A program made the position numbers and the translations under genes. Below the pieces are notes generated by a model that made no database searches, had not been told where the DNA came from, and was given only the letters and a program-made list of their open reading frames with translations. A DNA stretch of 64,000 nt from a virus (taxonomy: Duplodnaviria; Caudoviricetes): positions 274,056 to 338,055 of IMG/VR virus record IMGVR_UViG_3300005326_000040, one strand, 5' to 3'. This document shows positions 22,161-51,328 of the stretch, one piece after another; the stretch's first letter is position 1; each line of letters opens with the position of its first letter.

Positions 22161-22931
22161 ATGAAACTGCGCGAACTATTTAGTGTTATAGATTCTACCG
22201 CCAAAGAAATAGGAGCTTCTACTCCATTTCTTGTAGGCGGCATGGTTCGTGATATTGTTATGCATAAGTTTGAGAATATCAAAGACATTGATATTACCTG
22301 CGGCGACGCATCCAGTGACGAGCTTGGAAGAGCGTTGGTTAAGAAAATTCCTCAAGCAACTTACACTAACTTCAGTGATGGTCACGGCAGACTGTCCACA
22401 GAAAACTTCAATATAGACTTCAGCAATAATTTCAATGTTAGTAATATCGACGGGATATTGAAGGGCTTTGGGTATCTAAAAGCAAAACCAATTGAAAAAG
22501 AAGTTTATAGCAGAGACTTCACTTGTAATTCTTTGCTGTTGCCTTTAACGTCTTCTAAAGTTTATGATCTTACAAATAGAGGAATCAAAGATATTAAAAG
22601 CAAAATTCTAGACACATGTCTGGCTCCAGAAATTACTTTACAAAGTGACCCCAAAAGAATTGTTAGAGTTATTTACCTGTGTGCTAAATTAGATTTCAAA
22701 CCTTCTCCAAGGGTAGTTGAATGGGTAAAAAATAACACTAAATTGATGTCTTCAGTAGAAAAAAAGTATGCTGACGAAAAACTAAACAAAGCAATAGAAT
22801 TAAACCCAAAGGTTGTTTTTGATTTAGCAGAAGAGCTAAATATGAATCAATTTATACCAAACAGCGCAGCTTATAGAGATTTTGCTGTTGAAAATCCTGA
22901 AATACTGTTGAGGACACTAAATGGACAATAA
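22161..22931 (+). CDS. Class II tRNA nucleotidyltransferase / poly(A) polymerase family, head domain only
   Basis: FLVGGMVRD, KDIDIT, SRDFTCNS, GIKDI, SDPKRIVR; 256 aa. Confidence 0.88.
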   Translation: MKLRELFSVIDSTAKEIGASTPFLVGGMVRDIVMHKFENIKDIDITCGDASSDELGRALVKKIPQATYTNFSDGHGRLSTENFNIDFSNNFNVSNIDGILKGFGYLKAKPIEKEVYSRDFTCNSLLLPLTSSKVYDLTNRGIKDIKSKILDTCLAPEITLQSDPKRIVRVIYLCAKLDFKPSPRVVEWVKNNTKLMSSVEKKYADEKLNKAIELNPKVVFDLAEELNMNQFIPNSAAYRDFAVENPEILLRTLNGQ

Positions 22932-32468: not shown

Positions 32469-33041
32469 ATGACTATCTATATCTTAGCTGAACAAACTAA
32501 ACTATCAGCCTTTTTTAGCGAAGGGTATTCTGTTCGTCCTGAATGTTTGATTCGCAAAGCCGAGTTGGAAAGCGAAGTCGATAAACTATCAGGCTCTGAA
32601 GGGTTCGTTTTGCTTAAAATTGAAGAGCCCACAATGACAGAAGCTTTGTCTTATGTGCTCCCAGAAGAAGAAATTCATCTCTTTGCAGATGAAGTCAAAA
32701 TTGTAAACCCAGCAGAAGAAGGAATACAATCTCAGGCACTACAAAATTCTTACTCTAACATTTTCAAAACTGCTGGAGCCGAGGTCTATTCTGTTATCCA
32801 AAAAGAAACCGAACAAAACAAAGAGTTGCATTCAAAACTAATTAAAGCTGCAAGAAATTTTGGACTGAATGCAACAAAAGAATATACCACGATTTTCAAG
32901 CGCGCAATGATAGATAAACCAGTGAGAGATGTGTTTCAAAAAACATTTCTTGAAAAGCTTGAAGAAGCTAAACGTCTAGGTGTCAAAAATGCCGAGAAGG
33001 CCGCTGCAATGACAGCGATGAGAAAGGTTGGTTTAATCTAA
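32469..33041 (+). CDS. Putative internal head protein
   Basis: LIRKA, IFKTA, LIKAA and IFKRA motifs. Confidence 0.6.
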   Translation: MTIYILAEQTKLSAFFSEGYSVRPECLIRKAELESEVDKLSGSEGFVLLKIEEPTMTEALSYVLPEEEIHLFADEVKIVNPAEEGIQSQALQNSYSNIFKTAGAEVYSVIQKETEQNKELHSKLIKAARNFGLNATKEYTTIFKRAMIDKPVRDVFQKTFLEKLEEAKRLGVKNAEKAAAMTAMRKVGLI

Positions 33042-34477
33042 TGTCTATTGCTCGGTTTACAGAGGTTTCACCTAATTTGTATCGAGGTGGCGCTCCAACA
33101 GAAGAAGATGTTGGGATTCTTAAGAGCCTATATGGCGTACAGCTAATCATTAGTTTGGATGAGTCTACTGGAAATAAAATCGATAAAGCTTGTAAAAAAT
33201 ATGGCGTTCAACATGTTATCAAACCCGTTCACGAGATGATTGAAAACGGCGTTGACTTGGTTATGGAAGAATTAAAGAGCACAAAAGCCACAGAGCTTAT
33301 TGGCGATAAGGTAGCTTTTGTTCACTGTAAGCATGGAAAAGATAGAACCGGAATGTTTGTAGCTAAATATAGGGTTGAAAATGGATGGTCGCCGAAGAAA
33401 GCTGTAGAAGAAGCTGTAAGTTTTGGTTTTGGCGTAGGTTGTGAACGCAACGTTCAAGATTATCTTGATGTTATTAATTCTGCTGCCACAGAAGATTTTG
33501 CAACACTAGAGGATTATAACAAGCTTTTTGGCAAAGTTAGAACAAAATCAACGTGTGAAAACTGCGGAAAAATCAAATATGACAGCGGCACCTGTACGAA
33601 CTGCGCAAGTGAAACAGGAGAAACTACGATAAAATTGTTTGATGATGCAGGAGATGCGGCAACCGAAACAAGAGACACAATGAATAAAATACTAGACTCT
33701 GACCCTATGTCGGCTCCTACAATCGATCAAAGTATATCCGGAGTTACTGGGTCGCTAAAGTACCCAAAAGCTGTTCGAAAAGGTATTGTTGGTGCCTTAC
33801 ATAAGTATATTGTTGCCCAGCAGCATGAAGTAAGTTCTCAAGTTACGGCAGAAGATGTTGCTCTCGCTAAAAGACTTATCAAGCAGTTTACTACGCTTAT
33901 TAGTCTTATTGATACTCTTATTTTGAAGGACGTTCAAAAATTTATTGAACTTTTGAAGACTGTCAACGGCATTACTCCAGAGTTAATCAAAGAAGTAAAA
34001 GCTGAACCGTATTTTTCAAACTTAGGCAAGAACATCAAAAAGAACTGTTGGAATCTTGTTGGCAATAAATATATCGATGTCGCAGAAGATATTGATGAGA
34101 ACAAAACCAAAAAAGAAAACATGGGAGATACTGATGGAAGAAAATCTCCGTTTGAAGTTTGTTTGGATGGTTTCAGCAAGTTTAATAAAGACACACTTAT
34201 TGGCCCAATGCAAAGCTCTCTCGAAGACGCGATGAAGGGTCTTGTAGATTTGGTTGTAGATTTAGCTGACTTTGTTGAGGAAAAGATTGAAACCAAAGAG
34301 TTTCAACCAAATCTTCTAAAATTACTTGAGGCGATTGAACAACAAACAGCCACTATCAAGTCATTGATTAAGGATAGGGTTATATTTACTTTGAACAAAG
34401 ACGTTGTTGGTTCAGATAAGCCTCATGAAAACAAAGAAGTAAGTGTTCTTCAACAAGTCGTTAACAACAAAAGGTAA
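33041..34477 (+). CDS. Tyr/dual-specificity phosphatase domain fused to Zn motif and helical domain
   Basis: LYRGGAP and catalytic VHCKHGKDRTG (HCxxGxDR); CENC..CTNC. Confidence 0.85.
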   Translation: MSIARFTEVSPNLYRGGAPTEEDVGILKSLYGVQLIISLDESTGNKIDKACKKYGVQHVIKPVHEMIENGVDLVMEELKSTKATELIGDKVAFVHCKHGKDRTGMFVAKYRVENGWSPKKAVEEAVSFGFGVGCERNVQDYLDVINSAATEDFATLEDYNKLFGKVRTKSTCENCGKIKYDSGTCTNCASETGETTIKLFDDAGDAATETRDTMNKILDSDPMSAPTIDQSISGVTGSLKYPKAVRKGIVGALHKYIVAQQHEVSSQVTAEDVALAKRLIKQFTTLISLIDTLILKDVQKFIELLKTVNGITPELIKEVKAEPYFSNLGKNIKKNCWNLVGNKYIDVAEDIDENKTKKENMGDTDGRKSPFEVCLDGFSKFNKDTLIGPMQSSLEDAMKGLVDLVVDLADFVEEKIETKEFQPNLLKLLEAIEQQTATIKSLIKDRVIFTLNKDVVGSDKPHENKEVSVLQQVVNNKR

Positions 34478-34691: not shown

Positions 34692-37600
34692 ATGAGTATA
34701 TTTAAACGTGGTGAAGCTCTTCAGTTCTCTACATCTGATATAAAACCTACAGACGCCATAGAAAACGATCCATTAGTAATGGAACGTTTCCGAAAAATGG
34801 CGTCTTCGCTGAAAAATAAAATTGCGCCTAAAGCGAATGATTTTTTATATTTTTCGGCTATCATGATGCATGCAGCTGAGAGATCTTTGTATGATGACAA
34901 GGGCAATCTCAAAGTAATTAATGGACGGCCCGTTGAAGCACATTGGGAAGTCAGCGATAAAGGTTCATGGAAGTGGGTATGTTCTGACCCAAACCTCCGA
35001 CCTTATAGAAACGCTAACAGAGATATTTTTCCTGAACTAGAGCTTAAGAAAGCTTACAAGAAATGGGTTGGAAAGCCTCTTTGTAAAGACCATCAATCAA
35101 GCACGATTGAAGGCGTTCGCGGTCTAATTCTAGATACATATTATGATGAAAAAGCAAAAAACGTTATAGCATTATGCGCTATTGACCGCGTAAATTATGG
35201 TGACTTAGCTAGAAATATCGAAACTGGTATTGCTAATTCAGTTTCCATGGGAACGGCAGTTGGATGTTCGATTTGTTCTGAGTGTGGAAACGTAGCTAAG
35301 ACTGAGACTGAGTATTGTCCTCATGTTCGGTCAAGAATTGCTTATGGAGAGATTAACGTTGACCTGTCTCCCATCGAGTTAAGCATTGTTGTTAATGGCG
35401 CAGACCCATTAGCGAGAGTAAGAACAATCATTGCTGCTACAAATCAATTTGAAAATACACTCAAAAAGAGTGCTGGAGCTGGTACAACTTTAGATCAATT
35501 GAATGCTCTTAAAGATGAGTTTTTCAAGCTTGCTGGTAGGATTCAAGAACTCGAAAAAGAAATTACAGTTCCAGATGACAATAATTTCGCATTAAAGGCA
35601 GTGGCATCTCTAGATATTCATGATGATGCCTCAAAACAAATTCAAGAAGAGTATATCAATGGGTTGAGTCTTATTAAGACTAAGATGTCAAACATTGAGA
35701 CGATGTTTCAAAAACTTGCTAACAATAAGTACAATACGGAGGAATTAATGGGGTCAGATACTAAAATTGCCAAAGGGTTTTACCAGGGAACAGAGGAACC
35801 GACCCCTGGACGCCCACAGTACGAAAAAGAAGAAGCCGACAAAATTCGTGACAACGAGGATCGCCAAGTAAAGAATATCGCTGATCTAGGCCCCGTTGAC
35901 GGAATGTTCCCTGGTGATCTTGAGAAAAAGCGTATGCTTGCTCGCGCTGCTGTTGAAGAGCGTCGTGTAAAGCGCGCAGCCCTTGTTGAAAAAGCAAAGC
36001 TTGCTTATATGCAGGGCACAACTGAGCCTGCCAAGAATGGCAAAACTACTTATACACCAGATCCACTAGGTGATAAGGCTCGTGAACAAGATCGTTTCTT
36101 GCAGAGCCCGACTGAGTTCAAGGGTGATGCGGCTCCAGGCGACGTTGAGAAGAAGAAGAAGCTTCTACGCGCTGATCTCAAGGCTCGTTTTACTAAGGCT
36201 GCAAAGCCAAACGGCCAAGAAGACACAGCAAATCATCGCTGGGATATTCTAGCAGACAACAAGGTTGTATTTTCTGCAACACTTAATGAGCTAACTGGTG
36301 GTCGTCGTTCTCTTTATGACTCAGTAAAAACTGCTGAGTTCGCAAAGGGAATGCTTCGTGCTATCAAAGAGGGTGGAGTTGAGAAGGCTGTATCTATTTA
36401 CAAGTCTGCTCAGATGGAAATGGGCGCTGACCCCATGGGCGCTATGCCTCCTGCTATGCCTGCCCCCGCTGCTGCTGGTCCAGTTCCCGGTGATATGATG
36501 GGCGGAATGGGCGCTCCTGCTGATGGCGGCGCTACTCTAGAAGCCGTTCCGGAAACAGTTGCTGACCCCGTCGAGCGTGGCAAGATGTCGCTAGAAGTTC
36601 TTGAGAAGAACATCGACACAATGACCACAAACCTTCGTGAGCTTTCCACCGATATCAAAGGCGGTTATGACACACTAGAGAGCCAGAGTGGACAGTTCGG
36701 CGGCGACGCTGCTGCCCCACTTGCTGCTCCTGCTAATGCAGTTACTGCAAGTCTAAATTCACTACGACGCGGCGCAACAGGCCCAGAAGCCACAGGCGCT
36801 CTTCGTAATATTCAGATTGTACTAAATGCGGGTCTAAAAGAAGCTTTCAAGACTGTTCTTGCTGAGATCGAAGAAAGCGCTGATGAGCTTGATACACTCA
36901 AGGCCACAATCAGCATGCCCGGAATCGATGATGTTCATCAGGAGTTTGTTCAGAATATCGCTGACAGCGCCATTACAGAAGCAAATGAGATCGTTAGCAA
37001 AGCTAATGCTCTTCGTCTTGCCTTTGTAAATTATGCTCGCGGTACATATGGTCTTGAGAAAAAGGCTGCCGTTGAGAATCGTATGCTCAAACTTGCTGCT
37101 GCAAAGAAAGCTAAGAGCAAGAAAGAAAAAGAAGAAGAAGATAAGAAAGCTAAGGAAGCAAAAGAAAAAGGCAAATGCAACAGCAAACCTGCTGGTAAGC
37201 AGCCAGTTCCTCCGCAGAAAACACCAGCGGCTCCCGCTGCCGGAATGAAGGTAAAGGCTTCTGAAGATGATGATGATGTAACCACACTAGAGGGTAAACG
37301 AATGCTTAGAGAAAAACTTGCATCCAAAGCTCTTCAAATGAGCGAAATGCTTAACAAAGCCCATCCAGGCGGCAGCGTTACTATCGGTGATTTGGACACT
37401 AAAACTCAGGAAGCCGTAGTCGAGGACCTTTCTGATGTTCATGACGCTATGGAAAACGCCGCAACATCTACTCCTACCGCCAGCGACAAAACAAAGCGCG
37501 CAGCCAAACGCATTGATGACCTAATCAAAGCTGGGCGCGTTGCTTCTGGCGAACTCGATGACCTCGTCAAGCACGGCTTGGACAAGGATGCAGTATCCTA

Positions 37601-38012
37601 TTGGAAGAAGTATTATGGTCAGGTCGAAGGCGGCAGTGAGTTCGCAAGCGAACTAGTCTCCGATTATGACAAGGAGAAGAGGGCTGCTCTTGATATCGAA
37701 CAGTACAAGGTCAAGCTCGCTCGTGCTTATGACATGGCTCACCGGATGGCTACCGCAGGTATCGTTCCAAATACCGCAGACACCATTCAGAAGGAAGCAG
37801 AGAAGATTGTCAAGTGGAATGACGATGCTTATGAGTCGATGGAGCGCGTAGTTGCCCATCGTAGACCCGAACTCCAGAAGGAAGCTTCTATGAGTATTCA
37901 GAACGGTCTCGCTCTCGATAGTAATATCGCACAGGGCGCACCTGCTGACACTACTCTTGTTGCAGAAATCACACAGGCTCTTATGGGGTCTAAACTAGGA
38001 CGCCGGTTCTAA
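34692..38012 (+). CDS. Prohead maturation protease-scaffold fusion
   Basis: WVGKPLCKDHQ (His), RGLILD, SVSMGT (Ser), CSICSECG..CPH, ELSIVVNGADPLA, then about 750 aa of coiled-coil/low-complexity sequence with many KxA motifs. Confidence 0.8.
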   Translation: MSIFKRGEALQFSTSDIKPTDAIENDPLVMERFRKMASSLKNKIAPKANDFLYFSAIMMHAAERSLYDDKGNLKVINGRPVEAHWEVSDKGSWKWVCSDPNLRPYRNANRDIFPELELKKAYKKWVGKPLCKDHQSSTIEGVRGLILDTYYDEKAKNVIALCAIDRVNYGDLARNIETGIANSVSMGTAVGCSICSECGNVAKTETEYCPHVRSRIAYGEINVDLSPIELSIVVNGADPLARVRTIIAATNQFENTLKKSAGAGTTLDQLNALKDEFFKLAGRIQELEKEITVPDDNNFALKAVASLDIHDDASKQIQEEYINGLSLIKTKMSNIETMFQKLANNKYNTEELMGSDTKIAKGFYQGTEEPTPGRPQYEKEEADKIRDNEDRQVKNIADLGPVDGMFPGDLEKKRMLARAAVEERRVKRAALVEKAKLAYMQGTTEPAKNGKTTYTPDPLGDKAREQDRFLQSPTEFKGDAAPGDVEKKKKLLRADLKARFTKAAKPNGQEDTANHRWDILADNKVVFSATLNELTGGRRSLYDSVKTAEFAKGMLRAIKEGGVEKAVSIYKSAQMEMGADPMGAMPPAMPAPAAAGPVPGDMMGGMGAPADGGATLEAVPETVADPVERGKMSLEVLEKNIDTMTTNLRELSTDIKGGYDTLESQSGQFGGDAAAPLAAPANAVTASLNSLRRGATGPEATGALRNIQIVLNAGLKEAFKTVLAEIEESADELDTLKATISMPGIDDVHQEFVQNIADSAITEANEIVSKANALRLAFVNYARGTYGLEKKAAVENRMLKLAAAKKAKSKKEKEEEDKKAKEAKEKGKCNSKPAGKQPVPPQKTPAAPAAGMKVKASEDDDDVTTLEGKRMLREKLASKALQMSEMLNKAHPGGSVTIGDLDTKTQEAVVEDLSDVHDAMENAATSTPTASDKTKRAAKRIDDLIKAGRVASGELDDLVKHGLDKDAVSYWKKYYGQVEGGSEFASELVSDYDKEKRAALDIEQYKVKLARAYDMAHRMATAGIVPNTADTIQKEAEKIVKWNDDAYESMERVVAHRRPELQKEASMSIQNGLALDSNIAQGAPADTTLVAEITQALMGSKLGRRF

Positions 38013-38207: not shown

Positions 38208-39008
38208 ATGAAAATTGGTAAAGGTACTAATTCTGCCGTCCTAGATGACATGGCTAATATCATGGAGAGTGAAGATATGAAAACTCTCTTTGCGTTTAAG
38301 AAAGAAGCACAACAAACACAAACTGGTGGCGAGTTTGCATCAGATGGAGTTCATAGAAACTTAACTCAACAAGAACATTTGGATATCGCTCGTCAGACTC
38401 CCGAAGGAAAGGGCGATGATGAAAAAGTACGATATCTTACCCCTACTCTTCAAAAGCTTGTAAACGATCCTTCTTATGCCATGATGGATGCAAACGCTGT
38501 AAACGCAGCAAGACGCGCTCTAAGTGGTAAACCTGGACCTAGTGACGCTTCTCTTCTTGCTCGATTCTTTCCACAGGAGCAAAATCTTCAAGCGGCTTTA
38601 AATTCGTTTAAGAATATTGCCAATCCATTGGCTCCTACTCCAGTTAAGCCTGGAACCGCCGTTGCTAAGCCTAGTACTCCTACTGGGTATCAGCCAACTT
38701 ACGGTATGGAATCCACATCCAGTGCGATTACCGAGCTAGTAAAGATGGGCGAGGTTTTTGCTGAGGCCGGTTTCATTAAGAGCGAAGCTCTTGTTGGCGA
38801 ACTCCTCAAGACTATTACTGTTGAAGCTCGCAAGAAGGTTGTTGAAGAGCTACAGAAGGGTAAGAAAGGCGCAACCAAGAAGGATGAGAAGTGCCCGAAA
38901 TGCAAGAAAGATTCAAAGAAATGCGAATGCAAGGGCAAAGACGGGAAGTCTGCTAAGAAGCCTGAGCCTGAGAAGAAAGATGGAAAAAAGCCTGCTAAGA
39001 AATATTAA
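38208..39008 (+). CDS. Putative internal head protein with Lys/Cys-rich tail
   Basis: FKKEA motif, shared helical module, CPKCKKDSKKCECK tail. Confidence 0.6.
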   Translation: MKIGKGTNSAVLDDMANIMESEDMKTLFAFKKEAQQTQTGGEFASDGVHRNLTQQEHLDIARQTPEGKGDDEKVRYLTPTLQKLVNDPSYAMMDANAVNAARRALSGKPGPSDASLLARFFPQEQNLQAALNSFKNIANPLAPTPVKPGTAVAKPSTPTGYQPTYGMESTSSAITELVKMGEVFAEAGFIKSEALVGELLKTITVEARKKVVEELQKGKKGATKKDEKCPKCKKDSKKCECKGKDGKSAKKPEPEKKDGKKPAKKY

Positions 39009-39070: not shown

Positions 39071-39757
39071 ATGTTGCGTCTCGTACAAATTGGTTCAGCA
39101 CAAGCAGCTAGTTATCCGGCAGATCCCGTTGGTTACTTTTACCCAGGAATGATTGGTCAGTTAAAGCTCCACGGAAACACCATTGTATGTGGTGTTTCCG
39201 ATGGAACGGCTCCTCTTGGGATTATTGATGATACCAGGACAAATGCCTTTTACGCTCCCAGTATTGATGAAATCATTATCGAACCTGCTGTTGGTCAACT
39301 TGTCAACGGTAGAATGGTTTCGGTTACAGAGGTAAAAGCAGAATTAAGAAATTCAACCATCATAGATAGCAGCTTTATCTGTGATACTCAAGTTGTTCTT
39401 AAGCCTAAGAATGGTGTTGTTGTTTTCCCTGTAGGAACAACTTTGAATTTTGACGCTGACGGTGACGGTGTGAGCGATTCAATTCGCGCAGTCTGTAGTT
39501 ATACATATCAGGTGCCAAATACTCCTGGTGACAACACTACAATGGGCAGCGGTCGAATTACAATCTGGTTTCACAGAGTAATGGCACAAACTGATCAGTT
39601 CGAAGTCAATCAGCGTTATCCGTTGAATGCGCCGCTATTTGTTAGTGAGGCTGGAAAACTTACCACGAGACGACCTAGTGATTATCATCCGACGGTTGCT
39701 ATTGTATTAGCTCCACCGCAGAGTGCTACACCATATCTAGACTTTATGTGGCTGTAA
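39071..39757 (+). CDS. Capsid decoration/cement-like protein, paralogue 2
   Basis: APLGIIDD, GSGRITIW and PLFVSEAGKLTT are similar to 49573..50232. Confidence 0.5.
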   Translation: MLRLVQIGSAQAASYPADPVGYFYPGMIGQLKLHGNTIVCGVSDGTAPLGIIDDTRTNAFYAPSIDEIIIEPAVGQLVNGRMVSVTEVKAELRNSTIIDSSFICDTQVVLKPKNGVVVFPVGTTLNFDADGDGVSDSIRAVCSYTYQVPNTPGDNTTMGSGRITIWFHRVMAQTDQFEVNQRYPLNAPLFVSEAGKLTTRRPSDYHPTVAIVLAPPQSATPYLDFMWL

Positions 39758-39760
39758 AAG

Positions 39761-40009
39761 TTATTTCTTCTCATCGGTAGGATAAAGTCTAATCCTTATT
39801 CCTTCATTTGTTTCACATTTTACAATGCCGGTATGTGCCCAAAAATCACGCTTGTGACATTCTAAAATAATTCCGTCTTTACAATTTGCTCGGCAATTAG
39901 TCCAGTTAGCGTCGTCTACTTTATATGCGACAACTAAAGAAAACAAAATAGAAAGAAAAAATGTTGCTATTCCTAGTCCTTGGAGCACGGAAATCAAAAG
40001 TTTTTGCAT
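39761..40009 (-). CDS. Small membrane-anchored 4-Cys protein B
   Basis: N-terminal TM helix, NCRANC...C...FW..TGIVKCET. The ATG at 40009 follows the upstream stop by 1 nt. Confidence 0.65.
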   Translation of the reverse strand: MQKLLISVLQGLGIATFFLSILFSLVVAYKVDDANWTNCRANCKDGIILECHKRDFWAHTGIVKCETNEGIRIRLYPTDEKK

Positions 40010-40010
40010 G

Positions 40011-40253
40011 TTATTTTGCCTTATTGAATTCAATCAATCTTACGCCTTCAACTGTTTCACATCGTACAGTTCCTGACTTCTCCCAAAACCCAATTGTCTG
40101 ACAGTCTTGAACCATACCAGGACACGCTTGCCTACAGTTATCTTTGCCTTTGGAACGACCTATTTCGCCTAAAATCACACCTGTAAACACAGCAACAACT
40201 ACAATTATAATCATACTAGCGATACAATAGTCTGTTATATTATCGATACTCAT
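40011..40253 (-). CDS. Small membrane-anchored 4-Cys protein A
   Basis: N-terminal TM helix, NCRQAC...C...FW..SGTVRCET; paralogue of B. Confidence 0.65.
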   Translation of the reverse strand: MSIDNITDYCIASMIIIVVVAVFTGVILGEIGRSKGKDNCRQACPGMVQDCQTIGFWEKSGTVRCETVEGVRLIEFNKAK

Positions 40254-40867
40254 TTTGGCGCAACCTTTTTGAATTCTGTTGAAAGCTGATTGTAAATCGG
40301 TTGATACTTGTTCTTATAGTAAGTCCAGTCAACACTACCCGACGACATAATTTCGTGAAACAAATCATTGGCTTCTTGATAGTTCACAATCTTGCCTTTG
40401 GTAGCTATTTGCCGACCAAACATTAACACGCGAAGAGAATGCCACAAGCTCTTGATACCAATATGATATTCTTTGGTGACTTCAAGTTTTTTCTTGGCTT
40501 TCACCCATGAGTTGGAAGCCTTATGAGAAATGGAAGCTCGAAGTTTAGGAACATCCAATAGATATCCTGGTTTCAATCTGTCAGCAATAATATGTTGGGG
40601 CGGCAGGAAAAGACATTCTAAAATAGAAATCTCTTGTTCAAGACTTAAAGCTTCAAATTGTCGCTGCTTATAAAACGAAAAATCAAATTCTCCGGTATAA
40701 TGTCGGTCAGGATGTCGAAACGTTTGGTCATCTACAACTACAATAAAATCCTTATCAGAGACTTCCGTCATGGTTCCGTATACTTGAGAACCATAAGCGT
40801 ACACAGCAGCTACTTGGGATAGGTCAATAGCATGCCCGAGTTGGTCGAAAATATTGTCTGAGTTCAT
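40250..40867 (-). CDS. DNA polymerase beta-superfamily nucleotidyltransferase
   Basis: YAYGSQVYGT...SDKDFIVV (GS/DxD), third acid in FDFSFY, helical C domain. Confidence 0.8.
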   Translation of the reverse strand: MNSDNIFDQLGHAIDLSQVAAVYAYGSQVYGTMTEVSDKDFIVVVDDQTFRHPDRHYTGEFDFSFYKQRQFEALSLEQEISILECLFLPPQHIIADRLKPGYLLDVPKLRASISHKASNSWVKAKKKLEVTKEYHIGIKSLWHSLRVLMFGRQIATKGKIVNYQEANDLFHEIMSSGSVDWTYYKNKYQPIYNQLSTEFKKVAPK

Positions 40868-40875
40868 TGATTTTG

Positions 40876-41886
40876 CTAGTATTCTAAAATTTGTTTTGGC
40901 GCGGTCATTTGAAATTCCGTAAGATTTCGTGCGCCCATAAACGAAAAACTAGACTGAATTCCATCTATAATTCCATCCAATGTTTTTTGAATAGGCCCGG
41001 AGGCAGGAATTAATTTTGAAACGCCTTCAATGTGCCTAACATGATTGTCTTCTTTGGACACAACTTGTTTTGCTACAATAGAAGCATTCCCCCAATAATC
41101 CTTGAATTTTTGATTATCAACCATAACTGTTCTGCCATAACTTTCGTCGCAGGCAGCAAACATTTTCCCGACCATTACCATATTGCCCCAAATCATACAT
41201 TTGGCAATATCCGAAGCGTGTTCAATAGAACCATCTAGGCAAAGAAGAGTATCCCAATCATTGGTATCGTCTCGATAAGTTTTTGCTACATGAAGACAGT
41301 GAACTCCAACCCCTGTAGCAAATCTAGTCGAACAGACGCTTCCAAAACTGTTTCCAATTTTGATGATATGGGCTCCTCGATCTCGCAGGTATTTAATTCC
41401 ATCTGTGGAAGAAACATTTCCCGCCATGATGGTAAGTTTCGGGTGGGTGTCTCGGATATACTTTAGGATATCTCCTACCAGCTTGTGATGCCCATGATTT
41501 ACATCGACAATTACGTTTTTTGTTCCTTGGTCAACCAGCCAATCAACAAATTCATAATCTTCTTTTTGAACGCCAATGGAAGGGTAAAATCTTGAAAGTT
41601 CTTCTCTGTTTCTTCGGTTCTTCAAAACTCGAAGAAGCGTTTGATTTCTTTCTTCCTGGGTTCTAAAAAATCGATGATAGCTGGCGGCGGCACCTTCTAC
41701 TAAAAGTTTATCTACCAATTCTTCGGTGCAAATAGAATGCATATTTGCGTTAATTACAGGAATATAGAGATTGGTCAAAACCTTTCCGTTCCCATCAACC
41801 AATAAGGAGGAAATGTCTACCCCAGAGGAACGGGATTCAATCTCAGAATATGCAGGTATTAAAGTGAACGAATCAAATGTCAGCAT
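40876..41886 (-). CDS. GMP reductase / IMP dehydrogenase family protein (no CBS domain)
   Basis: NANM, VDVNHGH, MAGNV, GSVCSTR (catalytic Cys), LDGSI..SDIAK, IEGV; 336 aa. Confidence 0.85.
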   Translation of the reverse strand: MLTFDSFTLIPAYSEIESRSSGVDISSLLVDGNGKVLTNLYIPVINANMHSICTEELVDKLLVEGAAASYHRFFRTQEERNQTLLRVLKNRRNREELSRFYPSIGVQKEDYEFVDWLVDQGTKNVIVDVNHGHHKLVGDILKYIRDTHPKLTIMAGNVSSTDGIKYLRDRGAHIIKIGNSFGSVCSTRFATGVGVHCLHVAKTYRDDTNDWDTLLCLDGSIEHASDIAKCMIWGNMVMVGKMFAACDESYGRTVMVDNQKFKDYWGNASIVAKQVVSKEDNHVRHIEGVSKLIPASGPIQKTLDGIIDGIQSSFSFMGARNLTEFQMTAPKQILEY

Positions 41887-41997: not shown

Positions 41998-42426
41998 ATG
42001 ACCATGGGATACAACAAAGATTGGAATGCGGCATTTATTGGATCGGAAGATTCAAAAGCTGTGTTTAGTTCTGAGGTTTTTCGTAACTTCGTGAAAATTT
42101 ATGAAAGCAACGTCCAAGAGGAGCTTCCTCCTGTTGATACAAGCAAAATGTTTGTAACGGCTGATGAGGCTTTGGCGGCTATTGTCAAAGAAGCAAGCGC
42201 ACCAAATCCTATTCGTTCAAATCTTGATTATGGTGCGGCACAAGAAGTTGAAGACGAGGATGAAGACTTATCCCTTGAAGAAATGAACATCAAAGCTTCG
42301 CATGATAACGCATTTGTTGAAATGCAAATCAAGCAAGCTTGGGATAAGCATTTTGCGTTGGAAGATGCAGAGGAAGAACTGGGCCTAGAAAAGAACGCCT
42401 TCTATATGGCGAAGAACAGGAAATAG
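41998..42426 (+). CDS. Putative internal head protein
   Basis: FSSEVFRNFVKIY N-terminal module; IVKEAS motif. Confidence 0.6.
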   Translation: MTMGYNKDWNAAFIGSEDSKAVFSSEVFRNFVKIYESNVQEELPPVDTSKMFVTADEALAAIVKEASAPNPIRSNLDYGAAQEVEDEDEDLSLEEMNIKASHDNAFVEMQIKQAWDKHFALEDAEEELGLEKNAFYMAKNRK

Positions 42427-42433
42427 GGTTAAT

Positions 42434-44164
42434 ATGGTTAGCAAAAATATCTCATTTTCTGAAAGCATTGTTATGCGAGAGTTGGAGCGTATTGCTCGGG
42501 CAAAGAATCTTATTGTAGAAGAGCCTGAAGCTCCCGCTATTGAAAAGAAAGCGTCTGTAAATACTTTGGAGAGTTCTTCGGACCTTTTCTTGGATATGAT
42601 GAAACTCGCTTCTGTTCTACGAGACCGAGGGTTTACTTCTCAGGCTTCGCAGCTAGAAGAGAAAGCCATTATTCTCAAGAAGGCAATGTCAGAAGGTGGA
42701 CATGATAGTTTATACTCTTTCTGGAAGGAAACCGGAGAGAGCCTCGTAAGTGACGCTCACTCCTCGACTGACGCTGATATTCCTGGGCACAAAGTAATGA
42801 ACGCTAATGAAATTGCTAAAGCGGTTCATGAAAGCACAAAAGATAAGCCAACAGGACAGGAGAAGAAGGCGGAGCTTGCCGTTCGTATGGCAAAAATGGT
42901 CAATGGGCTTGTTAATAAAGAGGCTCAGGTTGGCACCGGAATTCTTCAAGGGCTTTTCGGTGGAGCCACTGGTTGGGGTGTTGGTACCGCAGTCCCAGCA
43001 GCGGCTGCACTGGGAGGGCCAGAGCCGGGATCAAGCTCTATACCATCTGCTATGAACGGCGCTGGCGTATCTGCAACTTCAATTCTTCAAAATTTTAGAG
43101 AAGAAAGCAACGGCATTCTTGGTCAATTTTTTTCTTCGGCTACTGAAGCTCAATTAGGTTTGCGCACATTAGCAAATGTTGATTTTAGAACTTATTTTTC
43201 AGACCAAAACATTCAGAATGGGTCAGCTATAAATGGAATACCACAAGTAAACGAAGCAGAGTATTCTCAAATAAGAGCGAAGATTGCTAAAGGTTGTGAT
43301 GATTATATTTCTGTTGTAGGAACAACAGATGTAACATCTCTTCCAAATTGGGGAAATATCAAAATTAACTATCGAATTTCTAGCACTGAAAAAGAGGCTG
43401 TGAAAAACAATATAAAGCAAGTTATCTTGTCTTATGTTGATAAATTCCAATCAAGTTCAAAGAAACTTGTAAATTCGAACTTAGCAATTCTTGATGAGCT
43501 TTTAGTTGGAGACTACAAAGCAACTGTTGACAATATTGACAAAGTGCTCGGCACTAAAAACCAAGTGCTCAGCACTAAACGCTCAAAAGATATAATGGCT
43601 GCGGTTGGCAGTATATCCACATCTCTTGTGCGTATGAAGGGTTTTATTCTGCGAGCATTAAAAGGAATGGCTTCAATAAAGCAAATATACAATAACTATG
43701 ACGTTGTTTCTACAATCTCACAGGGTTTAAGCGGCGCTATCAAAGCTGTTGATTCTTTGGTGGAAAAGCTTAGCCAAACCGAAAGTGGTTTCAAAGAATA
43801 TACTGTAGACATGGAAGATAAAGTTAATGACGCACTGACTTTGTCTGCTGTTATTATTAAAAAGTCAGAAATAGCCAAAAATAATATTGGAAATATTAAG
43901 TCGTTTAATGACGGTACAAAGAAAATGCTTTTAGAAAATATTGATAAGCTTAAAAAAAGACCTACACACGCTTTGTATTTCTTAAAAGCGTTACCTGATT
44001 ACAGTTTCTATTCTGTAAGTGTAGGGTTAGAGATGAAGTCTATGGCTGACTTTGATAGGTATGTTAGTGTTTTGAAAGATATAGATGCGGCTATGGATGC
44101 TCATGTTAAAAACACAAGCGAAATCCTAGATAGAGAAAACAAAGAAGAAACTGGTCTAAGATAG
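42434..44164 (+). CDS. Putative ejection/internal protein with glycine-zipper segment
   Basis: N-terminal shared modules, then VNKEA followed by GILQGLFGGATGWGVGTAVPAAAALGG. Confidence 0.55.
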   Translation: MVSKNISFSESIVMRELERIARAKNLIVEEPEAPAIEKKASVNTLESSSDLFLDMMKLASVLRDRGFTSQASQLEEKAIILKKAMSEGGHDSLYSFWKETGESLVSDAHSSTDADIPGHKVMNANEIAKAVHESTKDKPTGQEKKAELAVRMAKMVNGLVNKEAQVGTGILQGLFGGATGWGVGTAVPAAAALGGPEPGSSSIPSAMNGAGVSATSILQNFREESNGILGQFFSSATEAQLGLRTLANVDFRTYFSDQNIQNGSAINGIPQVNEAEYSQIRAKIAKGCDDYISVVGTTDVTSLPNWGNIKINYRISSTEKEAVKNNIKQVILSYVDKFQSSSKKLVNSNLAILDELLVGDYKATVDNIDKVLGTKNQVLSTKRSKDIMAAVGSISTSLVRMKGFILRALKGMASIKQIYNNYDVVSTISQGLSGAIKAVDSLVEKLSQTESGFKEYTVDMEDKVNDALTLSAVIIKKSEIAKNNIGNIKSFNDGTKKMLLENIDKLKKRPTHALYFLKALPDYSFYSVSVGLEMKSMADFDRYVSVLKDIDAAMDAHVKNTSEILDRENKEETGLR

Positions 44165-44176
44165 GAGAATAGGAAC

Positions 44177-46387
44177 ATGTCAATTAATAAAGTTGCAGAC
44201 GCAGATTTAGTTTCTCAAGTTAATTCTCTTTATGGTAAAGCTGCTCCTTCGCCAAAAGCTCCATCTGGTCCGGCTCAACCTGGGGCCGCTCGTCAACAAA
44301 GTGGTGGCTCCAGTGGTTCTAGCGACAAATATCTAAGCGGTCTTATGGACCGTCTCAAGAAGCTTCCACCGCAGACCGTAGATGCCGTCAGAGCTATGCA
44401 GAAAGCATTATCTAATCTAGGCTCCGGCATTCTTCTTTGGGTTGACAAACAAAAACTTCCTAAGGACCAAGCAAAGAAGTTTATGGATCTAAGCCAGAAA
44501 ATTGGTCACACATATGGCGGGCACGCTTCGTTTACAAGCGAAGATGGTGTCTGGGGTAAGATGACCGCTGAAGCTCTAAAAGCTGTAGATGATTTGATTG
44601 AGCTTATTAAGAAAACCGGCGGCAATATAAGTTCTCCAGGACAACTCACCACACATTTATCTACTGGTGGACTTCCAGATCATGTTGCTATCAACCAGCG
44701 TGACGCTGTATATAATGAAGTTTATTCTACTAACATTCCTATTATCAACGCTGTTCTTCGAAATTTTGGGTTCATGGGTAGCGAAGGTGTGGATGGAGCA
44801 GAACTTGATAGACTTCCTAGAACATTTGACGAAGCTATATCTAATTTAGGAAAGACTCAAATTGTTAAAGATATTATGGATAAATCTCTGTTCCCTGTAT
44901 TGGGACGAGATTTACGATCTCTTGGGACAGCAAAGGATCTTTTAAAGAAAAATGGTTATGAGCTTCCAAACCCAGCCCGAAAATTGGATTCTAAATTTCA
45001 GGTTCTAGAACAAAAGGTTCCATATACTGGAACACAGTATTCTATTGGCGATATTAAAGTTGAAGACTTGGCTTCGTTTTTCGAGACCAACGGATATGTT
45101 ACAAATTGGAAGAGTTTGATTGAATTAGAACAAAAACGTTATGCTGGTATCAAAAGCTCAATATTACGGCAGCCAGCGAGAAATATGAACATTAATGATG
45201 CTCCGCAAATGCGGGAGTTCGTGAAAAACGTCAATGAAGCTTTAAGTGTAGTGGATTCTAGTTTCAACGAAGCATTAAACAGTAACAACGGTCTTATTAA
45301 ACAGAATGAGTTGGTTGGTTACTATCGCGCTTTACAACAGAGAATTTCAGGGGCAGTAAATACGCTACAATCAAAGCTTGGATATGACTCATCTCAAGTG
45401 CGTGATTTAGCCATGTTTGTTCAAACTATGCCGCACAAAGCAATGTCTTATGAGCAGCTTTCTTATACCATCAGTCAAATAAAAGAAAACCCAACATCTA
45501 TTTCTGTACCTAAACAGCTTGCTCAATATCTTGCGAAGATGCAGCAAACCAGAAAATCCGTTGGGTCGGACGCATGGACCGTTTCTCAACTTGAGTGGAT
45601 GGTAAAAATGTTTGTTGAGAGATCAAGCTCTCAATTTGAGCGCGCAACAACTGACACAGAAAAATCTATTAAAAAGCAATACAAAAATTCTGTTGCTCGG
45701 TTGGTTCAACAACTCAATGCTATCAAAGCTTTTGCTAGAGAAAAATTCGACGCAATGGGGCAGAGTGTAGCCGAAGAAACACTTGGTGGACTTATTGTTC
45801 CAGACACTATGCTTCTAAATGGTTTAAGCGGTGTTGATTCTTCTGGAACAGCATTGCAAAACAGAACAAACAAAGCGCCAAACTCACGAGGCAATGAAAA
45901 TAATCCTTGGGGCACTGGTGCTTCTGGCCCTTCTGGCGGCCCAGGGTCTGAAAACCTTGGTTATGTCAAAGACAGTGATACCGTTAAAACCAAGAGGCCA
46001 CCGATTACACCTAATACTATCTTCCTAAAAACTCTGGACGAGTGGTCAAACGCAGAAATTTCTGACATCGTATCCGGCGCCAAAGCAATACTAGAGTACG
46101 GCAAAATCTTCAATAGCGAAGATATGGGCGCAGGATTCTATCAGAGTATCGGATTTACAGCCAATGATATCTCTCGTATTATGGAAGCTATCCAAAGAGC
46201 TATGGATAACTATCTGCGTTTCCTTAGAGCCAAACAGATGACCGAAACAGAGTTGGAAGATAAGGTTCGTGAGGTTTCACGTAACGCCCAAAGATGGATT
46301 GGCACTCTAGCTCAAATGAAATCTAGAATGGCGCCTGACCGCTCAGTAGGGCCAAGAGTTATCGTTGACCGACCCAATCGCAGGTAA
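44177..46387 (+). CDS. Putative ejection/internal protein with peptidoglycan-binding-like motif
   Basis: INKVA at the N-terminus; VRAMQKAL...DGVWGKMTAEAL resembles PG_binding_1. Confidence 0.5.
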   Translation: MSINKVADADLVSQVNSLYGKAAPSPKAPSGPAQPGAARQQSGGSSGSSDKYLSGLMDRLKKLPPQTVDAVRAMQKALSNLGSGILLWVDKQKLPKDQAKKFMDLSQKIGHTYGGHASFTSEDGVWGKMTAEALKAVDDLIELIKKTGGNISSPGQLTTHLSTGGLPDHVAINQRDAVYNEVYSTNIPIINAVLRNFGFMGSEGVDGAELDRLPRTFDEAISNLGKTQIVKDIMDKSLFPVLGRDLRSLGTAKDLLKKNGYELPNPARKLDSKFQVLEQKVPYTGTQYSIGDIKVEDLASFFETNGYVTNWKSLIELEQKRYAGIKSSILRQPARNMNINDAPQMREFVKNVNEALSVVDSSFNEALNSNNGLIKQNELVGYYRALQQRISGAVNTLQSKLGYDSSQVRDLAMFVQTMPHKAMSYEQLSYTISQIKENPTSISVPKQLAQYLAKMQQTRKSVGSDAWTVSQLEWMVKMFVERSSSQFERATTDTEKSIKKQYKNSVARLVQQLNAIKAFAREKFDAMGQSVAEETLGGLIVPDTMLLNGLSGVDSSGTALQNRTNKAPNSRGNENNPWGTGASGPSGGPGSENLGYVKDSDTVKTKRPPITPNTIFLKTLDEWSNAEISDIVSGAKAILEYGKIFNSEDMGAGFYQSIGFTANDISRIMEAIQRAMDNYLRFLRAKQMTETELEDKVREVSRNAQRWIGTLAQMKSRMAPDRSVGPRVIVDRPNRR

Positions 46388-46394
46388 TGTTCAC

Positions 46395-47537
46395 ATGGAA
46401 CGAACAAAACGATTAGAAGCTTTAGCTAAACTCAAGAATGAGACGACTGCACCGGTCATTATTAAACAGGCCGGTGTGGTTGATCTTCTTAAAGATGCCT
46501 TTACTTCTATTTCTCAAAGCGTTGCTTCCAGTTTTGACAAAAGCAGCCCAGTAACCAGCGTGCTTCAATACTTTGCGATAGCAATGATTGCAAGAAGAAG
46601 CGTCTTATTAAGCGCTTTGTTTGCTGCAATCTCTTTGTTTTTTGGCGTCAATGTAGGCTCAGTGTTTGAGTCAATCAAACAACACCTGACACCCCATCTT
46701 CAGTCGCCTGAAGCAATAGAAAATCTCAACAAAAATCAAGATTCAATTGTTCGAGATATTGCAACCAAATCCGTTGACCCAGAAGTAAAGCATTCTGATG
46801 AACAAATTCAAAGCGCTGTAAAAAGCGTTGAATCTTCTGATGGTGCTGATCTTGGTTCCATCTTAGGAGCTTTCAGTCATCATGAATATTATGGTTTAGT
46901 GAAACAAGGCGCAGCCCCTATATCGCCAAATATGGTTAAGAAAATTCTTCCAATCATACAGTTCTTTGGCCCAGGGAGACTTGGAATTGCTGGTATCTTC
47001 TTTTGGATTATCAAAGCTATTCTTATTGGTGCAGGAATTACCGCAGCTACCGGAGTGCTCGGAGGAATGTTAGGTCATAAACCTGTAACACCAGAAACCT
47101 CTGAAGTGGCAACTGAGACAACTGAGAAAGAAGAATCAAAACCTCTTCCGCAGAGCAATCAAGTTGCTCCGTCCGATAAATCGCCGCAAATTGCTTCTAA
47201 ACTCAAAAGCAAGAACAATACCGCTCTTGAGTCTCCTGTTCCAAATAGCGGCGGAGCAGAATGGGTTCTTAGCGCAAAAGTAGATAACCATTCTCAAGCC
47301 GTAGACGCTTTTGCAAAACAACTTTTTGATGATGTCTTCCGCGCTTATACCGGATTTGAAAATGCACAAATCCCTTCTTCAAAAGTAATGCAGGCAGCTA
47401 AAGCTACTGTCACAGAGTTTATGCAGAAAACTAATTTCAAGTTCAACCAAGATGACAACGTGCAAGAACTTCGTATCCCTGGTAAGTTTACAACCAGAAT
47501 GCAAATTATCAATCATATTCTTGGAAAGATGCAATAA
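46395..47537 (+). CDS. Putative ejection protein with multiple transmembrane segments
   Basis: IIKQA and LVKQG each precede hydrophobic segments. The ATG at 46395 is preferred over the overlapping start at 46365. Confidence 0.55.
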   Translation: MERTKRLEALAKLKNETTAPVIIKQAGVVDLLKDAFTSISQSVASSFDKSSPVTSVLQYFAIAMIARRSVLLSALFAAISLFFGVNVGSVFESIKQHLTPHLQSPEAIENLNKNQDSIVRDIATKSVDPEVKHSDEQIQSAVKSVESSDGADLGSILGAFSHHEYYGLVKQGAAPISPNMVKKILPIIQFFGPGRLGIAGIFFWIIKAILIGAGITAATGVLGGMLGHKPVTPETSEVATETTEKEESKPLPQSNQVAPSDKSPQIASKLKSKNNTALESPVPNSGGAEWVLSAKVDNHSQAVDAFAKQLFDDVFRAYTGFENAQIPSSKVMQAAKATVTEFMQKTNFKFNQDDNVQELRIPGKFTTRMQIINHILGKMQ

Positions 47538-47545
47538 TCAAGTAT
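47533..47545 (+). promoter_or_regulatory. Putative late promoter motif AATR-N6-YAT
   Basis: AATA-atcaag-TAT before 47568. Confidence 0.45.
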
Positions 47546-47567
47546 ATATTCAAACAGAGGCAAAAAA

Positions 47568-48851
47568 ATGACACGCAGAAAAAATTATGAAGATCTAGCT
47601 CGGTTTGATAACAGCGAAGTTATGCGCGAATTTGTAAAGATCGCTTACGACAGCGGCTTAGCCCAACTCAAAGATTCTGACGTTCCATCTTATTCTGTCA
47701 AAGATGGACGTAACGGTTCTGATTCCGTTAAAGATATTGCTGAGAAATATTCTGATAAAGCAACTCTCGACCAAGACAAAGACGGCGAAGAGTTGATCGA
47801 AAAGGCTCATAAAGAAAAAGCTGAAGCCATCAATTCTTATCTCAAAGACGGCGGGCGTGTAGAAGACCTAAACGAACAACACAAAATTATGGTTGATGTT
47901 GCTACCAAAGGCCCTTCTATTAATGACTTCTATCACAGAAACATCTCAGCTATCAAAAACGTTTTAGATGAACTTGTTGTTATCGGGCATGAAATGGATG
48001 CAAGAGAAGAAGATGATATCGTCGTTTTTGCCGATGAAATTATCGCTGGAATTACAGCGACGGGCGAAGCTGTTGATGAAGACCTAAAAAAAAAGTTAAA
48101 TAAAATCGCTCTAAACGCTCAGCCTGTAGAGGGTCTTCTTTCTAAATTCTTCAAGTTTGTAAAATATAGTGTTCCTGCAATTGGTGTTGGAGTAGCAGCT
48201 TACTTTACTCTTTCTCATATGAGCAAGGGAAAGTCAGCAAATGTTCTTACGACTTCTGAAGGAAACGTAGGCACAATTGACCGATTTATCAATTCTGCAA
48301 CTATATATATTTCAGAAAACACTAATAAACTTGACCCGGCAGAACTGAAAGATATGAATCGTCTAGTTAACACAATGAAACTTTTTCGTAGCGAATACAA
48401 CAAAACGTCACGGCAATTTTTTGAAGTAAGACGTTCTATTATAAATGCTATTGATTATTCTGGAACATTTGATTCTAAAAATCTTGATAAACTATATTCT
48501 GATTTGCAGCAGGCTGACGCTGGGTTCAATAAAGTTGTTGAGTCTTTCAAAACTCAACTTGACGCCAATGCTCAACAATTAAACCTTTCCAAAGATGTAG
48601 CCAGCAATAGATTCATTAGTTCTGATCAGGAATATTCTAGAACAACTGATGCAAAGAAAGTTTTGGACGCTACATTTGAAGCTATGTATTCTACTGAAGA
48701 ACAAGTGCTAGCCGAAGCTTACGCTGATGTTATTAACTCGATAAAAGCCGAAGCAAAGAACCGCACTAGTATTATGAGTTATCTTCAAGCGCAAATTGAT
48801 GCTTATAAACAACGTTTAGCCTCTGAAAACACTGAGAAGCCAAAGGAATAA
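47568..48851 (+). CDS. Putative ejection/internal protein with TM helix
   Basis: Carries all three shared modules, then LNKIA followed by GLLSKFFKFVKYSVPAIGVGVAAYFTL. Confidence 0.55.
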   Translation: MTRRKNYEDLARFDNSEVMREFVKIAYDSGLAQLKDSDVPSYSVKDGRNGSDSVKDIAEKYSDKATLDQDKDGEELIEKAHKEKAEAINSYLKDGGRVEDLNEQHKIMVDVATKGPSINDFYHRNISAIKNVLDELVVIGHEMDAREEDDIVVFADEIIAGITATGEAVDEDLKKKLNKIALNAQPVEGLLSKFFKFVKYSVPAIGVGVAAYFTLSHMSKGKSANVLTTSEGNVGTIDRFINSATIYISENTNKLDPAELKDMNRLVNTMKLFRSEYNKTSRQFFEVRRSIINAIDYSGTFDSKNLDKLYSDLQQADAGFNKVVESFKTQLDANAQQLNLSKDVASNRFISSDQEYSRTTDAKKVLDATFEAMYSTEEQVLAEAYADVINSIKAEAKNRTSIMSYLQAQIDAYKQRLASENTEKPKE

Positions 48852-49572: not shown

Positions 49573-50232
49573 ATGGCTCTTAAACCACTACAAGCAGGAA
49601 AAGAACCCCTCGGTCAGTTTGACGGACTTGATACTGAGTACCTCACCCTCAAGGGTGGCGAATGCGGTACTTTCGGAATCATCTCTCTACCTCGTACCGA
49701 CAAGGCAGTTTATGATGCAAAAGATGGCTATACCAGCTATCTAACCAGCGGTAACGTTGTTATCACTAAGACTCTAGCTTCCGGCGCACGCCCCATCATG
49801 CTTCTAGATGAAGGCACTCTCGGTTATGGCACGACTTTCGGCGTTGCCATCGGTGGAGTTGGCGGTCAGGTAGTTGTGAATCCAAGCGACCCAGCACAGG
49901 TTGGCGGTCTCGTTCTTGGACCTCACACTGCTTGGGGTTCGGGCAAGGTAACTTGCTGGGACAAACCCGGTCTATACGCCGTAACTTTGGATGCAGTTGC
50001 TGCTGATCTAGCTCCAACAACCGCACTCAACCCAGGCGCAGCAATCTACGCAACCAGCGCTGGTCTATTGACCTCCGTTGCTGCTAGCTCGTTCGCCGGT
50101 TCAGGTCAGTATCCAGTAGCTCGCTTCGTCGAATTCTCGACTAAGGGCTCGCTTGTAACCACACCTAGCTATCTAGCTGGTGGCAATAAGGTTTACACCC
50201 AGGTAGTAATTCACTTCAATCCTGGTGAGTAA
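49573..50232 (+). CDS. Capsid decoration/cement protein
   Basis: Gly/Ala/Thr-rich beta protein immediately upstream of the MCP, strongly codon-biased; GSGKVTCW and IYATSAGLLT. Confidence 0.65.
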   Translation: MALKPLQAGKEPLGQFDGLDTEYLTLKGGECGTFGIISLPRTDKAVYDAKDGYTSYLTSGNVVITKTLASGARPIMLLDEGTLGYGTTFGVAIGGVGGQVVVNPSDPAQVGGLVLGPHTAWGSGKVTCWDKPGLYAVTLDAVAADLAPTTALNPGAAIYATSAGLLTSVAASSFAGSGQYPVARFVEFSTKGSLVTTPSYLAGGNKVYTQVVIHFNPGE

Positions 50233-50314: not shown

Positions 50315-51328
50315 ATGAATATGTTTAACAACAATGGACAGCTCAACGCCTCTTCTTTGAAAGATGCGTTTGGTACTATTATGAAGTATGCTTCTCTTCT
50401 CGAAGAGAATATGCCTTCAAACGCTGCACTTGTTGGTCAGAACGCTATGAGTGATGTCAAGCGTGACGAACTGATCACCAAGGCAATCATGACACAGGAA
50501 GGTAAGATTGCTCTAGCTCAGGCAATGGCTAACCCCATTCGTATGAACCTAGACTATCAGGGTATCTTCCGTCGCACCCTCGTTGTAGATCCTCTACCCC
50601 AGGGCGTTCAGGCTTCGTATGACCGCGATATCGATGTCGCTGCCGTTATCGTTTCTAGTAACGGTTCGCCTCCCGAGAGCCGCGTATTCGCCGACCGCAT
50701 CACCGTTCCTGAGTTCGAAATCGTTTCGAACCCCACGGTTCGTATTGCTGAGGTTCGTCGTCGTCGGTTCAATATCATCGACCGCGCAGTTCAGAAGGCC
50801 CGTCAGGAAATCATGGCCCAGGAAGATGCCAACGGCTTCGCAGCCCTTGATGCAGCTTCTTCGGTTGAGAATACTGTTCAGGATATCGCTGACCTCGGTC
50901 TACAGAAGCGCGACCTAGTCGAGCTAAAGATTCAGATCGATCGTTGGGACCTGGTTACGACCAAGTTCTTCATGAACATCAATGAGTTCACCGACATCCT
51001 AAATTGGGGTTCGGGCGGCGGTCAGGCTGCTGGTATCGGCGGCGAATTCGACCCCGTAACTCAGCGCGAAGTCCTTCAGACTGGTCTCTATGCCAAGATC
51101 TGGGGCGCTGACATCATGGTAAGCAAGATTGTACCCGCTGGTACAGTTTACGCTTGCGCAGATCCAGAGTTCGTAGGCGTTATGCCCGTACGTCAGGATA
51201 TAGAGGTTTTACCGGCCGATGAACCGCGAAGGTTATCGCTAGGCTGGATTATTTCTGAGATTATCGGCATCGGTATCTGCAATCCTCGTGGCGTCGCAGC
51301 TGGTCGCAAGACAACAAGCAACGGCTAA
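50315..51328 (+). CDS. Major capsid protein (HK97 fold)
   Basis: 337 aa; LDYQGIFRRTLVVDPLPQG, VPEFEIVSNP, QKARQEIMAQED, IWGADIMVS; strongest codon bias; followed by a terminator. Confidence 0.88.
   Translation: MNMFNNNGQLNASSLKDAFGTIMKYASLLEENMPSNAALVGQNAMSDVKRDELITKAIMTQEGKIALAQAMANPIRMNLDYQGIFRRTLVVDPLPQGVQASYDRDIDVAAVIVSSNGSPPESRVFADRITVPEFEIVSNPTVRIAEVRRRRFNIIDRAVQKARQEIMAQEDANGFAALDAASSVENTVQDIADLGLQKRDLVELKIQIDRWDLVTTKFFMNINEFTDILNWGSGGGQAAGIGGEFDPVTQREVLQTGLYAKIWGADIMVSKIVPAGTVYACADPEFVGVMPVRQDIEVLPADEPRRLSLGWIISEIIGIGICNPRGVAAGRKTTSNG

Follow-up and report, generated by a model that had tools for sequence, protein, structure and literature searches.

The window analysed here is a stretch of 64,000 nucleotides (nt), the final 64 kb of the 338,055-bp single-contig record IMGVR_UViG_3300005326_000040 (positions 274,056 to 338,055), which is the 338-kb genome of an uncultured jumbo phage, a kin of Bacillus phage G. 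It contains a block of head genes in which three adjacent families of proteins, referred to as C (open reading frame (ORF) 41998), A (ORF 42434) and B (ORF 47568), have the same short helix motif, H1, at their start. These families are sited between the gene of a prohead protease-scaffold polyprotein (ORF 34692) and the capsid gene (ORF 50315). The polyprotein (34692..38012, +) has 1106 amino acid residues (aa) and 27 K-x-A sites. Its N-terminal part is the protease domain (phrog_18299, E 3.7e-14; gp19 of phage G, E 6e-22), in which H134, S185 and E229 of the head maturation protease are invariant, and its C-terminal part, which matches gp21 of phage G, is read as the scaffold. The major capsid protein (50315..51328, +) has 53% identity to gp27 of phage G, with a 44-aa N-terminal extension containing I-M-K-Y-A. 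For the comparisons, 80 related loci have been collected via the capsid gene and 22 via the protease gene. Scans of A, B and C against Pfam and PHROG find no family above the cut-off.

The three H1 motifs are located within the first 35 residues, as claimed in an earlier note on this DNA. H1 is FSSEVFRNFVKIY in family C (aa 23-35; nt 42064..42102, +), where it follows a duplicated 9-residue unit (nt 42019-42048), FSESIVMRELERIA in family A (aa 8-21; nt 42455..42496, +), where a helix is predicted for aa 12-23 with a pLDDT (predicted local distance difference test) of ~90, and FDNSEVMREFVKIA in family B (aa 13-26; nt 47604..47645, +). The hidden Markov model (HMM) of the motif has been made from orthologues of other phages only, with the proteins of the window and those of its two closest relatives left out, which avoids circularity. 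When the 580 ORFs of the genome are searched with this HMM, the three proteins come first, with 19.0, 17.0 and 14.5 bits, versus 4.0 bits for the next ORF and 4.3 bits for the best reversed decoy, so that the similarity is beyond chance. With an ungapped position-specific scoring matrix the scores are 27.8, 25.7 and 20.5, versus 10-18 for the top match in shuffled proteomes. When the profiles of the families are compared with each other, the probability is 95% for A and B and 92% for C and B; that of C and A is weak (21%). The codons of the H1 copies differ (the aligned Ser is TCT versus AGC), and therefore the similarity is kept at the protein level. Judged from these scores, the motif is real and confined to three genes in this genome, and it is therefore not a general tag. 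In five large related genomes, H1 is never found on scattered or enzymatic cargo. An H1-like helix, ending in F-x-K-x-A, is present at the N-terminus of the protease (34764..34802, +), having a profile probability of 90% with H1 of B and of only 10-12% (weak) with H1 of A and C. Small upstream proteins and the 38208 family were also considered as carriers of H1, and were rejected (all at or below 11% profile probability). Family C (41998..42426, +; likelier start 42004) is a small acidic protein, found in some relatives only (9 of the ~43 loci inspected), and H1 is nearly the sole part that the window protein and its orthologues have in common.

In families A and B, H1 is the first of three modules of a prodomain of 160-180 residues. 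Together with the confinement of the motif to three adjacent families, this does not support the earlier idea of a T4-type tag that is short and stands alone. The prodomain of A (aa 1-164; 42434..42925, +) has the order H1, K-x-A, hairpin H2, K-x-A, AHP module, last helix and K-E-A; the prodomain of B (aa 1-181; 47568..48110, +), which is acidic (23% D/E), has the order H1, AHP module, hairpin and K-I-A. The two prodomains are aligned over 106 columns with a profile probability of 98%, and they have in common H1 and a module of ~50 residues with an Ala-His-Pro core (AHP). Past aa ~165-180 there is no similarity between A and B. The proteins had been described as otherwise unrelated, which is correct for these C-terminal parts but not for the prodomains of A and B.

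The AHP module is located at 42725..42859 (+) in A, where it is degenerate in this genome and canonical in the orthologues, and at 47775..47924 (+; aa 70-119) in B. It is also present in the scaffold part of 34692 (aa 883-931; 37338..37484, +; E 4.7e-6), with conserved K-x-A sites on both flanks, and in ~15 related scaffolds. The AHP module of A matches the scaffold profile with a probability of 95%. When the five large related genomes are searched with the profile of the A prodomain, only A, B and the scaffold are matched (the scaffold in three of them), and in the reciprocal search the scaffold profile recovers A in related genomes. Matches to the prodomain are found in 1,197 clusters (at 50% identity); no cultured phage is matched by the prodomain of B. 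AlphaFold predicts the A prodomain as separate confident modules, with no single globular domain (predicted template modelling score, 0.36), and the B prodomain also as separate modules. One orthologue of family A (L093:7611-8978) has three tandem AHP modules.

The H2 hairpin of A is a helix-Gly-helix hairpin (aa 47-86; 42572..42691, +), ending in the conserved K82-x-A84. The hairpins of A and B are differently placed, and homology between them is not supported (profile probability, 1.4%). In the head cluster of relatives, many small proteins contain a hairpin of a two-helix family, such as the small ORFs preceding the 39071 orthologues (e.g., L034:1143-1370), and this family is also found in aa 172-207 of ORF 38208 (38208-39008). 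It resembles H2, with a link that is not significant: homology of H2 to this wider two-helix tag has a profile probability of 37% in the case of A and 3% in the case of B, and is likewise not supported.

The K-x-A sites mentioned above follow the pattern hydrophobic-x-K-x-A, which is a candidate cut site of the prohead protease. At the end of H1, the site is K-I-A in B (K24-x-A26 in 42/45 orthologues) and K/R-x-A in A. In C, H1 ends in K-I-Y instead of K-x-A, and the orthologues of C have L-x-K-E-A ~8 residues further on. A candidate protease site at the end of the motif is thus supported in A and B, but not in C. In the head cluster, the pattern is observed 63 times versus 19.9 +/- 4.2 expected (~3-fold), and in gp4-21 of phage G 22 times versus 6.7; in the replication block there is no enrichment (8 versus 8.6). 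The spacing controls are close to chance, save for a weaker excess of K-A (33 versus 21), and hydrophobic-x-E-x-A is not enriched. The sites are conserved among the orthologues of the prodomains. Per 100 aa there are 1.77 sites in the prodomains of A versus 0.13 in the C-termini (13-fold), and 1.33 in the prodomain of B versus 0.19 in the C-terminal part (7-fold). A site of this type is also present in the N-terminal extension of the capsid protein in 55/56 orthologues. This pattern fits the prohead protease sites of T4 and SPN3US, phages in which the scaffold and the propeptides carry repeated protease sites (PMC9026906, PMC10052503).

Genome-wide, 61 ORFs have K-x-A in the first 40 residues, versus 19.9 expected (~40 extra). 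A separate class of helical leaders, ~15-17 residues long and ending in F/L-x-K-x-A, heads many scattered ORFs throughout the genome (G000:C1:162913, 180552, 246029, 120183, 62045 and 258997; window 58426). One of these ORFs, C1:40549, is an M23 peptidase, and the majority are without a Pfam family. These scattered leaders make a better parallel to the T4 tag than H1 does. A candidate late promoter, AAT(A/T)-N6-CAT, precedes 34692, 38208, 41998 (with one mismatch) and 58426, as well as scattered ORFs with leaders. It is found upstream of 11/44 leader ORFs versus 12/445 others, a comparison for which the p-value is circular, as the pattern was picked by eye from the same set. A sigma-70 scan is at chance level.

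Across the relatives, the N-terminal parts of A align in 404/406 pairs and the C-terminal parts in 21/406, and for B these numbers are 682/703 and 419/703, respectively; the far higher N-terminal conservation is in line with the earlier note. The variable C-terminal part of A (412 aa; 42926..44164, +) opens with a Gly/Ala-rich uncharged stretch. In the window it has no detectable relative, the closest phage included, and a homologue search with full-length 42434 finds only the protein itself. The DNA of L049 and L050 is 99.1% identical through codon 169 of A, unalignable to the gene end and then 86% identical; the DNA of L125 and L126 is 98.5% identical up to the same codon 169, with the break there. 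The C-terminal change in A is therefore replacement and not drift. Among 189 A alleles, 70% of the pairs with 80-90% identical prodomains lack a C-terminal match. With respect to the capsid gene, the C-terminal part of A shows no tracking (Spearman 0.19), whereas that of B tracks it (0.67). The suggestion of a polymorphic, effector-like cargo is therefore appropriate for A in so far as its C-terminal part is exchanged at codon 169, but B is inherited vertically, and no effector family of Pfam is found.

The A alleles are, as far as their sequences indicate, mostly distant members of one helical-bundle group and not known enzymes: 155 of the 189 join one divergent helical profile, and the three largest clusters align at 91-98%. 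When 110 alleles are compared with Pfam, no family is found in more than one allele, and there are only single weak matches of the coiled-coil type. The window's allele joins no allele group, its Gly/Ala-rich opening being present in ~1/10 of the alleles; a tie between Gly-rich alleles and an extra K-x-A site is rejected (p = 0.27). In several long A alleles (P0069, P0108, P0127, L050:2522-3985), the boundary motif K-x-x-L-G is repeated just downstream, which suggests that this motif may be functional in its own right. The predicted mature protein of family B (48111..48851, +) has a hydrophobic segment, which is strong in 34/46 orthologues, followed by a long four-helix bundle (aa 226-420). 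A Foldseek search of this protein against the Protein Data Bank (PDB) gives nothing at E <= 0.001. The comparison with AhlB, having the ClyA-type alpha pore-forming fold, gives a Z of 11.3 (root mean square deviation 3.5, 168 aligned), with designed bundles scoring higher (Z 13-14). A literature search for polymorphic ejected proteins found nothing.

The gene order of A, B and the intervening genes is kept in relatives. The first of the intervening genes codes for a 736-aa protein (44177..46387, +) with no H1 at its N-terminus and with a weak peptidoglycan-binding-like match, under the Pfam cut-off; at least one relative has it as a fusion with family A. The second codes for a 380-aa protein (46395..47537, +), also having no H1, with a short leader ending in I-I-K-Q-A and at least two hydrophobic segments. 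The block is flanked by two conserved genes (39071-39757 and 49573-50232), which are without a K-x-A site in this genome, as would be expected of outer-surface proteins. Their assignment as decoration proteins is not confirmed, as neither gp26 of phage G nor gp98 of Myrna is matched. The head cluster also contains a head domain of the poly(A) polymerase/CCA-adding type (window 22161-22931), the terminase (at 25107) and a dual-specificity phosphatase domain (window 33041-34477). Just ahead of 41998, the head operon is broken, as seen by eye, by a minus-strand insert (window 39761-41886) with an IMP dehydrogenase/GMP reductase-like ORF, a nucleotidyltransferase-like ORF and two small membrane proteins; near this position relatives often have a homing-endonuclease-like gene.

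The reading that we favour, and that we judge to be fairly probable, is that certain internal head proteins carry long modular propeptides, of which H1 forms the first helix, and that these proteins would be loaded, cleaved and ejected. The prodomains of A and B would attach to the scaffold core during its assembly; the scaffold-like AHP module is the most plausible contact, and H1 would be an extra core-binding helix or a helix for the pairing of A, B and C. The prohead protease would cut the K-x-A sites, probably after the alanine, and the fragments would leave. The freed helical proteins would remain in the head, would probably be ejected, and could act at the cell envelope. A hydrophobic or Gly-rich segment, which would suit entry into this envelope, is found at the start of B and of some A alleles. 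In this scheme, A would consist of a fixed loading piece and a swappable host-facing C-terminal allele, B would be a vertically inherited component, and C would be an optional small protein with H1 alone. A more specific proposal, which is tentative, is that this clade loads internal proteins by means of a copy of the self-assembly module of the scaffold, that these are freed by an undescribed K-x-A-specific protease, and that one of them is a swappable cassette. That the swapped A allele, exchanged at the prodomain boundary, is membrane-active or host-facing is a part of this joint proposal and is just as doubtful.

Several observations weigh against the propeptide reading. The AHP module of this genome's own 42434 is degenerate (5 bits), and the terminal alanine of the cut site is absent from the window's 41998. 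The last boundary of A is mostly K-x-x-L-G/A (151/170) and not K-x-A, the canonical site being found in 6/35. The mature domains match generic helical bundles only (fold searches, ESM Atlas), and therefore the arguments for ejection and membrane entry come from hydropathy and the gene context. The prodomain has no match in the cultured phages G and Myrna. An incomplete literature search gave no paper on K-x-A cleavage.

The role of H1 itself is the least certain part of the scheme, and therefore two other readings of this helix keep some weight. The stronger of the two, which has a minor but real chance of being correct, is that H1 pairs A, B and C with each other (or with the N-terminus of the protease) in an internal complex, for example an ejection core, and that capsid loading falls to another part, H1 being no address tag. 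The limitation of H1 to three adjacent genes, possibly also the protease, agrees with such pairing, as do the kept order of A, B and the intervening genes, the fusion of A with its neighbour and the prediction that H1 is an amphipathic helix. However, a conserved candidate cut site closes H1, and the region is dense in such sites, so that H1 is unlikely to be part of a mature complex; moreover, most relatives are without C. It is unlikely that H1 alone is a portable T4-like capsid-targeting sequence, sufficient for any cargo. In size, helix and terminal site H1 does resemble the T4 design, little besides it is common to the window's C and its orthologues, and early K-x-A sites are in excess genome-wide; however, these other K-x-A leaders do not match H1, scattered and enzymatic cargo in the five related genomes is without it, and the exchange of alleles takes place behind the whole 165-aa prodomain and not behind H1.

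It is slightly less likely still that H1 is an extended protease-recognition helix, spread by duplication and having no targeting role. In this case the K/R-x-A at the end of H1 in A and B, and the similar helix before the first site of the protease, would be accounted for, but most K-x-A sites of the cluster are without the S-E-V-x-R-x-F pattern, the conservation extends past the site (K-G-L/M-I), and C retains the helix without the site. Chance or convergence of amphipathic helices is very improbable and largely refuted, since, although the motif is short and the comparison of C and A is weak when taken alone, profiles from independent families part the three proteins from other ORFs and decoys by >10 bits and A and B have a second module in common.

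If the propeptide reading is correct, the prodomain of family A probably serves to bring exchangeable proteins into the phage head. The swappable A allele suggests strong diversifying pressure on a protein that interacts with the host, and the K-x-A code, if true, would mark out, in these genomes, dozens of proteins as packaged. The general strategy of tagged, cleaved and packaged proteins is already known, which limits the surprise.

When compared with known systems, the families described here are like the internal proteins IPI-III of T4 in having an N-terminal peptide, a protease site at its end and divergent mature proteins; in T4 the targeting is by affinity for the core (PMC9026906). The T4 tag, right at the beginning of the protein, has 10-19 residues and is self-sufficient (10 residues suffice for targeting; PMC9026906), and it is removed by T4 gp21 at L/I-x-E. 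Unlike this tag, H1 (within aa 8-35) is one module of a prodomain of 160-180 aa, ends in K/R-x-A or K-I-Y, and is present on three adjacent genes only, not on many unrelated cargo proteins. Family A, and only this family, is like the MuF-fused and polyvalent effectors (Iyer et al. 2017, PMC5512222) in having a fixed head-associated N-terminal part and a variable C-terminal part, but A is without a MuF domain, and there is no recognisable enzyme or toxin family in the 110 alleles. The head module is like that of phage G (gp19, gp21, gp27; PMC12484599, PDB entry: 6wkk), with homologous protease, capsid protein and C-terminal segment of the scaffold and with K-x-A-enriched head genes, whereas in phage G the protease and gp21 are separate genes and the A/B prodomain has no match.

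The propeptides of gp47, gp50, gp53 and gp54 of SPN3US (111-254 aa), which are cut by gp245, are also longer than 100 residues, with several cut sites and with paralogous internal proteins (PMC10052503, PMC5694885). As in these long-propeptide systems, the head module contains the gene of a prohead protease, and a repeated motif is common to the prodomains, the scaffold and the capsid protein. In phiKZ and SPN3US the cut is after A-x-E, by a protease of the T4 type, and there is no confirmed scaffold in the lineage; in the present phage, which belongs to a phage-G-like lineage, K-x-A is the candidate site and a prodomain module is also found in the scaffold. No homology to these propeptides is found by the Pfam and PHROG scans. 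For the propeptides of phiKZ and SPN3US a role in targeting and core formation has been proposed; truncated gp47 of SPN3US is still packaged, and the role of the long propeptides in head loading and core formation was left open by the authors (PMC5694885). The module that is common to the cargo prodomains and the scaffold bears on this question, and it offers a concrete, testable mechanism. By analogy, the best reading is that the system works less like the 10-residue tag of T4 than like the long propeptides known from SPN3US and phiKZ.

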